Shown here: piece after piece, positions 1 to 5,071 of the stretch | Layout of the letters: each line of letters starts with the position of its first letter | How positions within the stretch are numbered: position 1 is the stretch's first letter | Source of the DNA: a virus | Lineage: Duplodnaviria; Heunggongvirae; Uroviricota; Caudoviricetes | Strand: one strand, 5' to 3' | Length of the DNA stretch: 5,071 bases | Virus record (IMG/VR): IMGVR_UViG_2663762849_000018 | Position numbers and translations under genes: made by a program | Notes under the pieces: model-generated | Databases searched by the model: none | What the model saw: only the letters and a program-made list of their open reading frames with translations | Told to the model about the DNA's origin: nothing

Positions 1-1
1 G

Positions 2-112
2 GATGCAATTGTGCGGGAGGCTCTTCTTCGTGATTTTAATACTCCACCCTTTAAAAAAGTGCCGGCTTACTGGCTTCATCCGGGGCTGACTTATCTTAAA
101 GTGCGTATTTAG
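2..112 (+). CDS. 3' end of an unidentified upstream ORF (36 codons open from the window edge, stop TAG 110-112)
   Basis: Frame 2 is open from nt 2 to TAG at 110-112 (…DAIVREALLRDFNTPPFKKVPAYWLHPGLTYLKVRI*). It ends 36 nt before the lysozyme start. It does not resemble the C-terminus of lambda gpM or of S/S21-type holins as I remember them. It may correspond to the small unknown ORF found between holin and endolysin in some lambdoid lysis cassettes; that is unverified. Confidence 0.25.
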   Translation, partial: DAIVREALLRDFNTPPFKKVPAYWLHPGLTYLKVRI

Positions 113-148
113 TGGGCCAGGGACAGCGGCTGAATATTTAATATATCC

Positions 149-1186
149 ATGAACACCAAAATCAAATACGGCCTGTCGGCTGCCGTTCTGGCGCTGATTT
201 CCGCTGGTGCGCCTGCGCCTGACATTCTCGACCAGTTTCTGGATGAAAAGGAAGGCAACCACACCACGGCATACCGTGATGGTGCAGGTATCTGGACCAT
301 CTGCCGTGGTGCCATCATGGTGGATGGCAAACCTGTCGTTCCGGGCATGAAGTTGTCGAAGGAAAAATGCGACCAGGTTAACGCCATTGAGCGTGATAAA
401 GCGCTGGCGTGGGTGGAGAAAAACATCAGAGTGCCGCTGACCGAACCCCAGAAAGCGGGGATCGCGTCATTCTGTCCGTACAACATTGGTCCCGGTAAGT
501 GTTTCCCGTCGACGTTTTACAGACGAATTAATGCTGGTGATCGCAGGGGAGCATGCGAGGCGATTCGCTGGTGGATTAAGGACGGTGAGCGGTATTTTTT
601 CTGTAATGAGCTGAATGAAAAAGGGGAGCCGGTCACCTGGCAGGGGCGGCAATATCAGGCGTACCCGATTGAGGGGAGTGGCTTTGAGATGAACGGAAAG
701 GGCAGCAGTGCCCGCCCGTCGCTGACGGTGTCCAATCTTTTCGGCCTTGTCACCGGAATGGCGGAGGATTTGCAGAGCCTGGTGGGGGCCACGGTGGTCC
801 GCCGCCGGGTGTATGCCCGTTTTCTGGATGCGGTGAATTTCGTTGCGGGCAATCCGGAGGCGGACCCGGAGCAGGAGCTGAGTGACCGCTGGGTGGTGGA
901 GCAGATGTCGCAGCTGACAGCCATGACGGCCTCGTTTGTGCTGGCCACACCGACCGAGACGGACGGGGCGCTGTTTCCCGGTCGTATCATGCTGGCGAAC
1001 ACCTGTATGTGGACCTACCGCTCTGATGAGTGTGGTTACACGGGCGGGGCTGTGGCGGATGAGTTCGATAAACCCACCACGGATATCCGTAAGGACAGAT
1101 GCAGCAAGTGCATGCGCGGGTGTGAACTGCGCAGGAATGTCGGCAATTTTGGCGGTTTCCTTTCCATTAATAAACTTTCGCAGTAA
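149..1186 (+). CDS. Chimeric ORF: N-terminal SAR-type phage lysozyme (GH24, P21 R / RrrQ-like, residues ~1-146) fused in frame to lambda-like tail-tip protein L (residues ~147-345, equivalent to lambda gpL ~34-232)
   Basis: 345-aa ORF from the six-frame track. Residues 1-146 match P21 R / E. coli RrrQ-type lysozymes: Gly/Ala-rich weakly hydrophobic N-terminal segment YGLSAAVLALISAGAPAP (SAR-like), catalytic E35-x8-D44-x5-T50 (EGNHTTAYRDGAGIWT), and FYRRINAGDRRGACEAIRWW. From ERYFFCNELNEKGEPVTWQGRQYQ onward the sequence is nearly collinear with lambda gpL through the C-terminal GNFGGFLSINKLSQ, including the Cys cluster (C286, C295, C318, C321). Junction is at about nt 584-589 (…WWIKDG|ERYFF…). 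Confidence 0.85.
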   Translation: MNTKIKYGLSAAVLALISAGAPAPDILDQFLDEKEGNHTTAYRDGAGIWTICRGAIMVDGKPVVPGMKLSKEKCDQVNAIERDKALAWVEKNIRVPLTEPQKAGIASFCPYNIGPGKCFPSTFYRRINAGDRRGACEAIRWWIKDGERYFFCNELNEKGEPVTWQGRQYQAYPIEGSGFEMNGKGSSARPSLTVSNLFGLVTGMAEDLQSLVGATVVRRRVYARFLDAVNFVAGNPEADPEQELSDRWVVEQMSQLTAMTASFVLATPTETDGALFPGRIMLANTCMWTYRSDECGYTGGAVADEFDKPTTDIRKDRCSKCMRGCELRRNVGNFGGFLSINKLSQ

Positions 1187-1191
1187 ATCCC

Positions 1192-1935
1192 ATGACAGAG
1201 ACAGAATCAGCGATTCTGGCGCATGCCCGGCGGTGTGCGCCTGCGGAGTCGTGCGGCTTCGTGATAAGCACGCCGGAGGGGGAGCGGTATATCCCTTGTG
1301 TGAATATTTCCGCAGAGCCGGAGGCGTATTTTCGTATCGCACCGGAAGACTGGCTGCGGGCAGAGATGCAGGGGGAGATTGTGGCACTGGTCCACAGTCA
1401 TCCCGGTGGACTGCCCTGGCTGAGCGAGGCCGACCGGCGGCTGCAGATAAAAAGCGCACTGCCCTGGTGGCTGGTCAGCCGGGGTGACATTCACAAATTC
1501 CGCTGCGTTCCGCAACTGACGGGACGGCGCTTTGCGCACGGGGTGACGGACTGTTACACGCTGTTCCGGGATGCATACCATCTGGCAGGCATTGATATGC
1601 CGGATTTTCATCGCGGGGATGACTGGTGGTGCAACGGTCAGAACCTTTACCTGGACAATATGGAGGCAACGGGCTTTTACCGGGTGCCCCTGTCCTCTGC
1701 ACTGCCGGGCGATATCCTGCTGTGCTGCTTCGGCGCATCGGTGGCTAATCATGCCGCCATTTACTGCGGCAACGGTGAGCTGCTTCACCATCTGCCTGAA
1801 CAGCTGAGTAAACGGGAGAGGTATTCCGAAAAATGGCAACGACGAACGCATTCTGTCTGGCGTCACCGCCACTGGCACGCATCTGCCTTCACGGGGATTT
1901 ACAACGATTTGGCCGCCGCCTCAGCCTGTATGTGA
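1192..1935 (+). CDS. K: Tail-tip assembly protein K (JAMM/MPN metalloprotease-like N-terminal domain plus NlpC/P60 C-terminal domain)
   Basis: 247-aa ORF starting 5 nt after the L stop. Strong similarity to lambda gpK as I remember it (MTETESAILAHARRCAPAESCGF…). JAMM motif HSHPGGLPWLSEAD (H68, H70, S78, D81) and NlpC/P60-type Cys/His (C121 in TDCYTLF, H187, H199/H200). 103-nt out-of-frame overlap with the next gene, as I recall for lambda K/I. Confidence 0.9.
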   Translation: MTETESAILAHARRCAPAESCGFVISTPEGERYIPCVNISAEPEAYFRIAPEDWLRAEMQGEIVALVHSHPGGLPWLSEADRRLQIKSALPWWLVSRGDIHKFRCVPQLTGRRFAHGVTDCYTLFRDAYHLAGIDMPDFHRGDDWWCNGQNLYLDNMEATGFYRVPLSSALPGDILLCCFGASVANHAAIYCGNGELLHHLPEQLSKRERYSEKWQRRTHSVWRHRHWHASAFTGIYNDLAAASACM

Positions 1936-2513
1936 ACACGGCAGCGGAAGCCATCCGCGCACTGTCGATGCAGGTGCCGGGCTTTCGCCGTCAGATGAAC
2001 GAAGGCTGGTACCAGATACGCATTGCCGGTGAGGATACGGCACCGGAGGCGGTGTATGCCCGCCTTCACGAACCACTGGGTGAGGGAACGGTTATCCATA
2101 TTGTGCCGCGACTGGCCGGAGCCGGAAAGGGCGGACTACAGATTGTGCTGGGGGCAGCTGCCATTGTGGGGTCTTTCTTCACGGCCGGAGCATCAATGGC
2201 GTTATGGGGTTCAGCCCTGGCAGCCGGTGGTTTTTCTGCCACCACGATGCTGTTTTCACTGGGTGCCAGCATGATACTGGGCGGTGTGGCCCAGATGCTG
2301 GCCCCGAAGGCAAAAACACCGGATTACCGCGCAACGGATAACGGCAGACAGAACACGTATTTTTCCTCACTGGACAACATGATTGCCCAGGGCAACCCGA
2401 TGCCGGTGCCCTACGGTGAAATGCTGGTTGGTTCACGACGTATCTCTCAGGACATCAGCACCCGTGATGAAGGCGGAGACGGAAAGGTGGTGGTTATTGG
2501 TCGACAGGGATAA
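1833..2513 (+). CDS. I: Tail-tip assembly protein I (ubiquitin-like N-terminal domain with Gly/Ala-rich hydrophobic C-terminal region)
   Basis: 226-aa ORF, about the length I recall for lambda gpI and resembling it by memory. GGGAGAGG Shine-Dalgarno-like sequence at 1814-1821. Overlaps the K 3' end by 103 nt in a different frame. Hydrophobic Gly/Ala-rich stretch GLQIVLGAAAIVGSFFTAGASMALWGSALAAGGFSATTMLFSLGASMILGG. Confidence 0.9.
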   Translation: MATTNAFCLASPPLARICLHGDLQRFGRRLSLYVNTAAEAIRALSMQVPGFRRQMNEGWYQIRIAGEDTAPEAVYARLHEPLGEGTVIHIVPRLAGAGKGGLQIVLGAAAIVGSFFTAGASMALWGSALAAGGFSATTMLFSLGASMILGGVAQMLAPKAKTPDYRATDNGRQNTYFSSLDNMIAQGNPMPVPYGEMLVGSRRISQDISTRDEGGDGKVVVIGRQG

Positions 2514-2552
2514 AACATAAAAAAATCCCGCAGTGATCGCGGAGCTGCGGGG
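2514..2552 (-). terminator. Rho-independent terminator oriented for minus-strand transcription, immediately 3' of gene I
   Basis: 7-bp GC-rich stem CCCGCAG (2527-2533) / CTGCGGG (2545-2551) with an 11-nt loop. On the minus strand the stem is followed by AUUUUUUUAUGUUUU (plus-strand A-run 2514-2526). On the plus strand no U-tract follows the stem, so the element is directional. Confidence 0.6.
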
Positions 2553-2622
2553 ACAGACAAATGAAGATTAATGTTAAGGAGTTGTTTTTGTTACTCGGGC
2601 AAAAAAACACTAACGCAGCGAA

Positions 2623-2652
2623 ATTATAAGCGCCACAGTCAGTGTGTGAAAA
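2623..2652 (-). promoter_or_regulatory. Candidate sigma70-type promoter on the minus strand (perfect -10 TATAAT, weak -35 TTTTCA, 18-nt spacer)
   Basis: Minus-strand TATAAT corresponds to plus 2623-2628. A 4/6 match to TTGACA (TTTTCA, plus 2647-2652) lies 18 nt upstream. A transcript from here would run about 95 nt to the terminator at 2514-2552. Sequence inspection only. Confidence 0.25.
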
Positions 2653-2720
2653 TGTGAAGATATTCAGAATTTTTATGCCATTACCGGTTTTAACCAACAG
2701 GATTATCGGTGGGCATGAAA

Positions 2721-2760
2721 GAAAACCCCGGTATCTGCTGATACCGGGGTTTCTGTTTAG
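2721..2760. terminator. Perfect palindromic hairpin, possible bidirectional intrinsic terminator
   Basis: AAACCCCGGTAT (2723-2734) / ATACCGGGGTTT (2741-2752) is a perfect 12-bp inverted repeat around the 6-nt loop CTGCTG. Plus strand continues TTTCTGTTT; minus strand continues TTTTCTTTC after the stem. Confidence 0.45.
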
Positions 2761-2842
2761 CATGGCAGAAATGTGTTTCATGCTTTTCGGGCGAAGGATA
2801 TCCGACTTCTGTACGGAATGGCAAGTGGCGGTTAATTTATTC

Positions 2843-2851
2843 AGGGGAAGG
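2843..2851 (+). promoter_or_regulatory. Shine-Dalgarno-like ribosome-binding site for J
   Basis: AGGGGAAGG ends 4 nt upstream of the J ATG at 2856. Confidence 0.4.
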
Positions 2852-2855
2852 CTGT

Positions 2856-5071
2856 ATGGGAAAAGGTGGCGGTAAGGCACACACGCCTCGTGAGGCGAAG
2901 GATAATCTCAAATCCACGCAGATGATGAGCGTGATTGATGCGATTGGTGAGGGACCCATTGAAGGTCCGGTGAAAGGCCTGCAGAGTATTCTGGTGAACA
3001 AAACCCCGCTGACGGACACGGACGGTAATCCCGTGATACACGGTGTGACCGCGGTCTGGCGCGCCGGGGAGCAGGAGCAGACACCACCGGAAGGCTTTGA
3101 GTCCTCCGGAGCTGAAACTGTACTGGGTGTGGAAGTGACGAAGGCAAAACCGGTGACACGCACCATTACGTCAGCGAACATTGACCGCCTGCGGGTGACC
3201 TTCGGGGTGCAGTCACTGGTGGAGACCACCTCAAAGGGTGACCGTAACCCGACGTCTGTCCGCCTGCTGATTCAGCTTGAGCGTGGTGGTAAATGGATGA
3301 CGGAAAAGGATGTCACCATTAACGGCAAGACCACCTCGCAGTTCCTGGCGTCGGTGATTCTGGATAATCTGCCGCCCCGGCCCTTTAACATCCGGATGGT
3401 CAGGGAGACGGCGGACAGCACCACGGACCAGCTGCAGAATAAGACGCTCTGGTCGTCATACACCGAAATCATCGATGTGAAACAGTGCTACCCGAACACG
3501 GCCATTGTGGGGCTGCAGGTGGATGCGGAGCAGTTCGGCGGCCAGCAGATGACGGTGAACTACCATATCCGCGGTCGCATCATCCAGGTGCCGTCAAACT
3601 ATGACCCGGAAAAACGCACGTACAGTGGTATCTGGGACGGCAGTCTGAAACCGGCATACAGCAACAACCCGGCCTGGTGTCTGTGGGACATGCTGACTCA
3701 CCCGCGCTACGGGATGGGAAAACGTCTGGGGGCGGCGGATGTGGACAAGTGGGCGCTGTATGCCATCGGGCAGTACTGCGACCAGACGGTCCCGGATGGT
3801 TTCGGGGGCACAGAGCCGCGGATGACCTTTAATGCGTACCTGGCACAACAGCGTAAGGCGTGGGACGTTCTCAGTGATTTCTGCTCGGCGATGCGCTGTA
3901 TGCCGGTATGGAACGGCCAGACGCTGACGTTCGTTCAGGACCGCCCGTCGGATGTGGTGTGGCCGTACACCAACAGCGATGTGGTGGTGGATGATAACGG
4001 CGTGGGGTTCCGCTACAGCTTCAGTGCCCTGAAGGACCGGCACACGGCGGTGGAGGTGAATTACACCGACCCGCAGAACGGCTGGCAGACCTCCACGGAA
4101 CTGGTGGAAGACCCGGAAGCCATACTGCGCTACGGACGCAATCTGCTGAAGATGGATGCGTTTGGCTGTACCAGCCGCGGTCAGGCTCACCGTGCAGGTC
4201 TGTGGGTGATAAAGACCGAACTGCTGGAAACGCAGACGGTGGACTTCACGCTCGGGTCACAGGGGCTGCGTCACACACCGGGTGACATTATTGAAATCTG
4301 TGATAACGACTATGCCGGGACTATGACCGGCGGACGTATCCTGTCCATTGATGCTGCCACCCGCACCCTGACGCTGGACCGTGAGGTTACCCTGCCGGAG
4401 ACAGGTACATCGGCGGTGAACCTGATTAACGGCAGCGGTAAGCCGGTGAGTGTGGACATCACCGCACACCCCGCGCCGGACCGGATACAGGTCAGTACCC
4501 TGCCTGATGGTGTGGAGACATACGGTGTGTGGGGACTCTCCCTGCCGTCACTGCGCCGTCGCCTGTTCCGCTGTGTCTCCATCCGGGAAAACACGGACGG
4601 CACCTTTGCCATCACGGCGGTGCAGCACGTACCGGAAAAAGAAGCCATTGTGGATAACGGAGCCCGCTTTGAGCCGCAGTCAGGCACCCTGAACAGCGTT
4701 ATCCCACCGGCAGTACAGCACCTCACGGTGGAGGTGAGCGCAGCTGACAGCCAGTATCTGGCGCTGGCGAAATGGGACACGCCGAGGGTGGTGAAGGGCG
4801 TGCGCTTCAGTCTGCGCCTGACCAGTGGAAGCGATGAGAACAGCCGCCTGCTGACCACCGCCATCACTGCCGATACGGAGCACCGTTTCAGTGGCCTGCC
4901 TCTCGGGGAATACACCCTGACGGTCAGGGCGATAAACAGCTACGGCCAGCAGGGCGAACCGGCCACCACCACGTTCCGGATTAATGCGCCTGCAGCACCG
5001 GCCACCATTGAGCTGACGCCGGGGTATTTTCAGATAACGGCGGTACCGCGTCTTGCGGTGTATGACCCGAC
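2856..5071 (+). CDS. J: Host specificity protein J (tail-tip / central tail fibre), N-terminal 738 codons; 3' end beyond window
   Basis: ATG at 2856-2858 preceded by a purine-rich SD-like GGGGAAGG. Frame 3 is open to the window end. Translation MGKGGGKAHTPREAKDNLKSTQMMSVIDAIGEGPIEGP…TEIIDVKQCYPNTAIVG…AWCLWDMLTHPRYGMGKRLGAADVDKWALY…LFRCVSIREN…ITAVQHVPEKEAIVDNGA… is collinear with the N-terminal region of lambda gpJ as I remember it. Not listed in the ORF track because it has no stop inside the window. Confidence 0.92.
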   Translation, partial: MGKGGGKAHTPREAKDNLKSTQMMSVIDAIGEGPIEGPVKGLQSILVNKTPLTDTDGNPVIHGVTAVWRAGEQEQTPPEGFESSGAETVLGVEVTKAKPVTRTITSANIDRLRVTFGVQSLVETTSKGDRNPTSVRLLIQLERGGKWMTEKDVTINGKTTSQFLASVILDNLPPRPFNIRMVRETADSTTDQLQNKTLWSSYTEIIDVKQCYPNTAIVGLQVDAEQFGGQQMTVNYHIRGRIIQVPSNYDPEKRTYSGIWDGSLKPAYSNNPAWCLWDMLTHPRYGMGKRLGAADVDKWALYAIGQYCDQTVPDGFGGTEPRMTFNAYLAQQRKAWDVLSDFCSAMRCMPVWNGQTLTFVQDRPSDVVWPYTNSDVVVDDNGVGFRYSFSALKDRHTAVEVNYTDPQNGWQTSTELVEDPEAILRYGRNLLKMDAFGCTSRGQAHRAGLWVIKTELLETQTVDFTLGSQGLRHTPGDIIEICDNDYAGTMTGGRILSIDAATRTLTLDREVTLPETGTSAVNLINGSGKPVSVDITAHPAPDRIQVSTLPDGVETYGVWGLSLPSLRRRLFRCVSIRENTDGTFAITAVQHVPEKEAIVDNGARFEPQSGTLNSVIPPAVQHLTVEVSAADSQYLALAKWDTPRVVKGVRFSLRLTSGSDENSRLLTTAITADTEHRFSGLPLGEYTLTVRAINSYGQQGEPATTTFRINAPAAPATIELTPGYFQITAVPRLAVYDP

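Follow-up and report, generated by a model that had tools for sequence, protein, structure and literature searches.

The cryptic prophages Qin, DLP12 and Rac of Escherichia coli K-12 are examples of defective lambdoid prophages. In the Sp prophage pool of E. coli O157 Sakai, blocks of morphogenesis genes are deleted, individual genes remain intact and segments are exchanged (PMC2669165); such exchange among co-resident lambdoid prophages by homologous recombination is well documented (PMC2669165, PMC3945230). In phage lambda the genes of the tail-tip module follow the order M-L-K-I-J (structure of gpL: 8iyk), and the lysis cassette of phage P21 contains the class II holin S21 and the SAR endolysin R21 (3hde, 3hdf). 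A lysis cassette near L-K-I-J is found in the JNEC-KY204 prophage (NZ_AP045180.1, L003 5010–8889), which has no head, tube, H or M genes: the genes of the holin, YdfR, lysozyme and lysis protein are followed by L-K-I-J within 2 kb, and the cassette lies ~1.5 kb from L.

The window studied here is a stretch of 5,071 bp that constitutes one entire contig of a draft assembly (CCBY01000508.1, GCA_000936105.1), and base 1 is the limit of what can be read upstream in its own genome. Its close relatives are, without exception, chromosomal prophages of E. coli or phages of the Stx type. Each end of the window falls within DNA of which E. coli genomes have several copies: the median for the tail segment is 3 per genome and the maximum 26. 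The window is part of a cryptic lambdoid prophage of a well-known kind, and one internal deletion in a lambdoid (Stx-phage-like) prophage, whose host was E. coli or Shigella, has probably left its right-hand scar here. The following features were assigned.

2–112, plus strand: 3' end (36 codons and TAG) of a 185-aa gene of the WP_001015163.1 type (phrog_1085), cut by the contig end; 100% amino acid identity to residues 150–185 of the L001 protein.
113–148, plus strand: A+T-rich 36-nt spacer before the lysozyme start, with no Shine-Dalgarno sequence; identical in intact prophages.
149–586, plus strand: lysozyme part of the chimera, residues 1–146 of a 177-aa rrrQ-type (P21 R-like) endolysin (PF00959).
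584–587, plus strand: deletion junction, GGTG microhomology present in both parental sequences.
587–1186, plus strand: gpL part of the chimera, minor tail protein L residues 34–232 and stop codon (PF05100, TIGR01600).
1192–1935, plus strand: tail-tip gene K, intact, 247 aa (JAB/MPN and NlpC/P60; PF14464, PF00877), of the same length as in relatives.
1833–2513, plus strand: tail assembly gene I, probably 226 aa from ATG 1833 (PF06805 over residues 15–97 of the long form).
2856–5071, plus strand: tip attachment gene J, 5' 738 codons, open to the contig end (Pfam FNIII-A_GpJ, Phage-tail_3, Ig_J).

Compared with the systems above, the window retains L (residues 34–232), K, I and J in the lambda order, but unlike lambda it lacks M and the first 33 residues of L, and it has a 342-nt gap between I and J with a PasB sRNA gene. 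As in P21, the holin of the relatives belongs to PF04971, and E35, D44 and T50 of the endolysin are conserved in the window. In contrast to P21, an extra gene (the 185-aa gene or YdfR) is located between the holin and endolysin genes, the endolysin ends after residue 146, and the spanin genes have been lost. The window is like the Sakai prophages in its deleted morphogenesis block, intact individual genes and exchanged segments; unlike defective lambdoid prophages in complete E. coli genomes, it has endolysin codon 146 joined to L codon 33/34, which yields an in-frame two-domain ORF. The JNEC-KY204 prophage shows that the layout with lysis genes beside the tail tip recurs. However, it results from an independent event: there the deletion has an IS1 and a fragment of a porin gene as its boundaries, the genes of the lysozyme, spanin and L remain whole, and no fusion is present.

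The beginning of the window was considered first in a preliminary description made from the sequence alone. The elements it had listed, namely a 36-codon ORF tail at 2–112, a distance of 36 nt and an ATG at 149, were all found at these positions, the frame ending in a TAG at 110–112. The 36-aa tail is identical to the C-terminus of WP_001015163.1 (residues 150–185 of 185), annotated as "hypothetical protein" and encoded in locus L001, where the counterpart of window base 112 is the stop of the 185-aa gene (L001 5555–6112). It also matches phrog_26186 (E = 1e-24) and phrog_1085 (E = 8e-20), both of unknown function. Judged by these matches, the 36-codon frame truly codes for protein and is not open by chance. 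At the DNA level, many E. coli strains have prophages that are 98.8–99.1% identical to positions 1–587, the best match being Z1323HEC0108 (locus L001). The gene order in this locus is a 71-aa class II holin (PF04971, P21 holin S, E = 9e-33), the 185-aa gene and a 177-aa lysozyme. Using tblastn, the 185-aa protein was also found in Stx1a, Stx2a and Stx2 converting phages. The full-length protein has no Pfam or NCBIfam family, and the 36-aa fragment has no Pfam match. The slot between holin and lysozyme is variable: it contains either the 185-aa gene or YdfR/DUF1327, or is empty, as in strain G1/2. No similarity was detectable between the 185-aa protein and YdfR/DUF1327. A homologue of the C-terminal part of the 185-aa protein in phage 86 (NC_008464.1 4452–4796, 82.6% identity) is labelled "YdfR family" in RefSeq, which may be an annotation inconsistency.

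The suggestion that a lysis cassette lies upstream of the tail genes is hence correct as to the place, which is the holin–lysozyme slot of lambdoid prophages, but the ORF tail itself belongs to no recognised lysis protein. The fragment could also have been the C-terminus of gpM. This assignment was rejected, as a different protein, the one encoded between the holin and lysozyme genes, is matched at 100%. The gpM and tape-measure H proteins of the closest tail-side relative were compared with the window by tblastn, the gpM query being recognised as PF05939 (Phage_min_tail) at E = 5e-28. The best E-values were 0.51 and 0.083, respectively, which is noise. Thus the tail-tip module does lack gene M, as had been proposed, with no gpM signal in the window, and this is one consequence of a far larger deletion.

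The ATG at 149 had been described as having no Shine-Dalgarno sequence, and the calculation agrees. For bases −22 to −4 relative to this ATG, the best duplex with the 16S anti-Shine-Dalgarno sequence has only −2.2 kcal/mol and is weaker than at 77% of window positions; the same measure gives −7.4 kcal/mol for the start of J. An in-frame TGA at 131–133 makes 149 the earliest possible start of the 345-codon ORF. The last 10 nt before the lysozyme ATG are common to both variants of the slot, and homology between the two haplotypes described below begins only at base 139. Since the lysozyme leader is identical in intact prophages (L001), its lack of a Shine-Dalgarno sequence is an original trait of this lysozyme gene family and no mark of decay.

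The ORF at 149–1186 consists of 345 codons, with lysozyme residues 1–146 joined in frame to gpL residues 34–232. Pfam splits it into Phage_lysozyme at residues 33–147 (PF00959, E = 2e-21) and Phage_tail_L at residues 146–343 (PF05100, E = 1e-91). The score of PF05100 is 305.9 bits (cut-off 25), and that of TIGR01600, 330.6 bits (cut-off 70.75; E = 3e-99, profile positions 22–224). Searches against Pfam, NCBIfam and PDB agree on the split between lysozyme and L at residue 145/146. The L part matches residues 32–232 of lambda gpL (8iyk_L) at E = 7e-112. It shares 97% of its amino acids with L of strain G1/2; the first 33 codons of L are missing together with its own start codon. The lysozyme part has 98% amino acid identity to the L001 lysozyme over residues 1–148, and the last 31 of the 177 residues are absent. 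It keeps a weakly hydrophobic N-terminus and the residues E35, D44 and T50, which we take, following the R21 literature, to be the catalytic triad of the endolysin. P21 R (3hde) aligns to residues 31–146 of the fusion, and all three residues are matched.

At the DNA level the window follows the lysis-side relative L001 through position 587 (99.1% identity) and the tail-side relative L002 from strain G1/2 starting from position 584 (97.2%). The joint is therefore the GGTG at 584–587; over positions 579–587, 7 of 9 bases are common to both parents. An overlap of 4 nt is typical of RecA-independent illegitimate recombination. The lysozyme frame runs straight into L at 584–587, so that no Rz/Rz1-type spanin is present 3' of the endolysin. 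Moreover, as R and L are fused, no terminase, portal, capsid, tube, H or M gene can stand between them.

The interval that is missing from the window was mapped on intact relatives. In single prophages of two complete genomes both breakpoints are collinear, have the same orientation and lie within genes. The distance between them is 18,491 bp in G1/2 (L011 13872/32364), whose prophage has an HK97-like head, and 15,794 bp in Z1323HEC0108 (L012 1341/17136), with a lambda-like head. The interval contains the 3' end of the lysozyme gene and the genes of the lysis (spanin-type) protein, small and large terminase subunits, portal, protease or capsid, and connectors, followed by the tail tube, G/T chaperones, tape measure, M and the 5' end of L. 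In G1/2 an ompC-like porin moron is located between M and L (L002 4545–5708), and a fragment of it lies beside IS1 in the JNEC-KY204 prophage (L003 7873–7992). Because of this moron, M and L are not adjacent even in intact prophages of this lineage. The view that the window sits on a deletion-scarred cryptic prophage in which lysis genes abut the tail tip is supported, and the junction inside the ORF at 149–1186 is now mapped, at the resolution of single nucleotides, onto the lysozyme gene and gene L.

We searched for the junction in other genomes. It is absent from 5,426 complete E. coli genomes and 50,697 phage records, where matches stop at 587 or begin at 579/584; a 30-nt query spanning the junction had no match in GTDB representative genomes or JGI metagenomes. 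The specific junction is thus new to the complete-genome and phage collections searched. The only match to the 30-nt query in IMG/VR was the contig of locus L009. By exact look-ups, the same 345-aa ORF or junction was found in six draft assemblies, all of them highly fragmented (contig numbers from >500 to >2,500): GCA_000936105.1, GCA_000936775.1, GCA_000941435.1, GCA_000944435.1, GCA_001373195.1 and GCA_000936715.1. The longest junction-bearing contigs are 5.1–8.5 kb long and hold prophage late genes only.

These six assemblies form two haplotypes. Haplotype A comprises the window, L005 and L006, and has the 185-aa gene upstream; the contigs of L005 and L006 begin 28 nt further in than the window. 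Haplotype B comprises L008, L009 and L010, with YdfR upstream. The haplotypes differ at 12 positions in 139–500, 2 positions in 501–2000 and ~130 positions in 2001–5071, and are unrelated upstream of base 139. Seven of the differing codons of the fusion are synonymous and four non-synonymous; all of them are in the recombined 5' part of the lysozyme, and the L part is near-identical. We read this pattern as one deletion event that would have been followed by exchange of the flanks through homologous recombination with other lambdoid prophages. One member of haplotype A, L006 (GCA_000941435.1, 1159–1298), diverges right after the stop of the fusion ORF, on a contig with Ns; after the divergence, 91 nt are 100% identical to the region of a prophage ClpP-type protease gene. 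Either this region was rearranged a second time or the contig was misassembled.

The context of the junction can be followed further in haplotype B. In all three of its assemblies the genes of the esterase, DUF1378, DUF826, holin and YdfR are located directly upstream of the junction. The order in L009 is the esterase C-terminus (DUF6645), DUF1378, DUF826, class II holin, DUF1327/YdfR and the fusion. Bases 80–1392 of L009 are 99.0% identical to the esterase–holin region of the G1/2 prophage, the best tail-side relative. In complete relatives the esterase–holin block lies downstream of the antiterminator Q and a tRNA cluster; by analogy, the holin gene, Q and the late promoter would be expected upstream in the genome from which the window comes. 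On the other side, L008 has a full-length J (1,176 aa) with a collagen-repeat tail-fibre gene after it.

The favoured scenario is as follows. Illegitimate recombination mediated by the GGTG microhomology would have joined endolysin codon 146 to L codon 33/34; the mechanism is suggested by the form of the joint. Approximately 16–19 kb would have been removed, including the 3' end of the endolysin gene, spanins, terminase, portal, head genes, tail tube, chaperones, H, M, any porin moron and the first 33 codons of L. By chance the reading frame is kept across the joint, for which reason gene callers see one 345-aa lysozyme::L ORF. Bases 1–148 represent the sequence just 5' of the endolysin gene, native leader included, which the event left undisturbed. 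Later, homologous recombination with other lambdoid prophages would have reshuffled the flanks, producing two haplotypes with one junction. As neither heads nor tail shafts could be formed and there is no intact endolysin or spanin, the remnant would be a cryptic prophage. The breakpoints, the microhomology, the identity of both flanks, the loss of the genes and the occurrence of one junction in six assemblies are observed; we infer that both flanks come from one prophage and that the fusion protein is non-functional. Some observations count against this picture. The window stops at base 1, and all six assemblies are fragmented drafts. The best lysis-side and tail-side relatives are different prophages of different strains, which leaves some room for an origin from two prophages. 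K, I and J are intact ORFs in the window (J being open to the contig end), the reading frame is kept through the fusion and E35, D44 and T50 are retained, so that individual genes may have residual function.

The main alternative is illegitimate recombination between two co-resident lambdoid prophages, in which case the junction would be the scar of a larger chromosomal deletion or rearrangement. It agrees with the divided best matches, Z1323HEC0108 for the lysis part (99.1%) and G1/2 for the tail part (97.2%), whose heads are lambda-like and HK97-like, respectively, and with the many copies of the tail segment in one E. coli genome (median 3, up to 26). However, the order and orientation of the genes are exactly those of a single prophage, and in each of two strains one prophage holds both breakpoints in collinear order. 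Besides, the upstream 1.3 kb of haplotype B is 99.0% identical to the prophage of G1/2, which is also the best tail-side match of the window; this favours an internal deletion over the joining of two prophages. Finally, the mosaicism of lambdoid phages accounts for mixed best matches without a second event. We consider the two-prophage origin unlikely, and an internal deletion in one prophage remains the preferred explanation.

Much less probable still is that the lysozyme::L ORF encodes a functional fusion kept by selection, such as a muralytic tail-tip protein or a poison subunit acting against tail assembly of incoming lambdoid phages; the order of the genes would in that case be a working architecture. 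The joint is in frame, E35, D44, T50 and the entire C-terminal part of L are kept, the ORF is intact in six assemblies of two haplotypes, and K, I and J are open. On the other hand, both partners are cut within their domains, the lysozyme having lost 31 C-terminal residues and L, 33 N-terminal ones; an in-frame joint has a prior of one in three; and the haplotypes are near-identical over the L part, which leaves no time for selection to show. Furthermore, there are no tube, tape-measure or M genes for a tail, and the junction occurs in none of the 5,426 complete genomes and none of the 50,697 phage records. We similarly regard it as highly improbable that lysozyme::L is expressed as part of the late operon and has gained a role such as that of a membrane-tethered L fragment poisoning the tail-tip assembly of superinfecting or co-resident lambdoid phages; if true, a function of this type would explain the persistence of one junction in two recombined haplotypes. 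An assembly artefact, that is, a chimeric contig made of lysis and tail reads from repeated prophages, is brought to mind by the very fragmented source assemblies, by L006 with its Ns and divergence after the ORF, and by contig ends lying in multi-copy prophage sequence, but is hardly credible given that the parents have only 4 nt in common at the joint (7 of 9 bases), far under the overlap or k-mer length of an assembler, and that six genomes, belonging to two haplotypes, each yielded this joint in a separate assembly.

Several observations concern the genes downstream of the fusion. K starts 5 nt after the stop of the fusion ORF (1187–1194) and has no Shine-Dalgarno sequence (+0.6 kcal/mol). 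This arrangement suggests that K is translationally coupled to L and would now depend on translation of the chimera. Gene callers begin gene I at GTG 1932 (193 aa). The ATG at 1833 is preceded by a strong Shine-Dalgarno sequence (−8.6 kcal/mol); the corresponding long form (226 aa) overlaps K by 103 nt, and its Lambda_tail_I domain begins from residue 15. Given the strong Shine-Dalgarno sequence and the position of the Pfam domain, the 226-aa form is likelier, and the start of gene I is most likely ATG 1833 rather than GTG 1932.

The gap between I and J, which is presumably only ~60 nt long in lambda, contains a homologue of PasB, an Hfq-dependent sRNA of EPEC E2348/69, on the minus strand at 2601–2519. 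The 83-nt homologue has 2 mismatches to E2348/69, where it is located in the same gap, and is flanked by a sigma-70-like promoter at 2650–2623 (11 of 12 matches) and a terminator at 2543–2527. The published PasB Northern probe (Table S6, PMC8550237) matches window positions 2524–2546 exactly. A permissive Rfam scan yielded no known RNA family, PasB itself being without an Rfam entry. Identification of this RNA as AgvB or AsxR was rejected, as there was no Rfam match and these two sRNAs are sited elsewhere, at the pR' moron site (PMC4104026). Upstream of J, at 2724–2762, the gap also contains a perfect 10-bp G+C-rich hairpin, CCCCGGTATC ... GATACCGGGG, flanked by an A-run and a T-run. It resembles a bidirectional terminator; it was read directly from the nucleotides and is absent from the list produced by the terminator scan.

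The mechanism and biology of this prophage are ordinary, such events are commonplace, and the junction raises no new biological question. Its significance is mainly practical. Annotators should mark the 345-aa "lysozyme / minor tail protein L" ORF as a pseudogene fusion that arose by deletion, rather than as a protein with two domains, and the contig is best read as part of a cryptic prophage. The locus provides a clean, base-resolved example of microhomology-mediated prophage decay, and the occurrence of one junction with recombined flanks shows how quickly segments are exchanged among lambdoid prophages.
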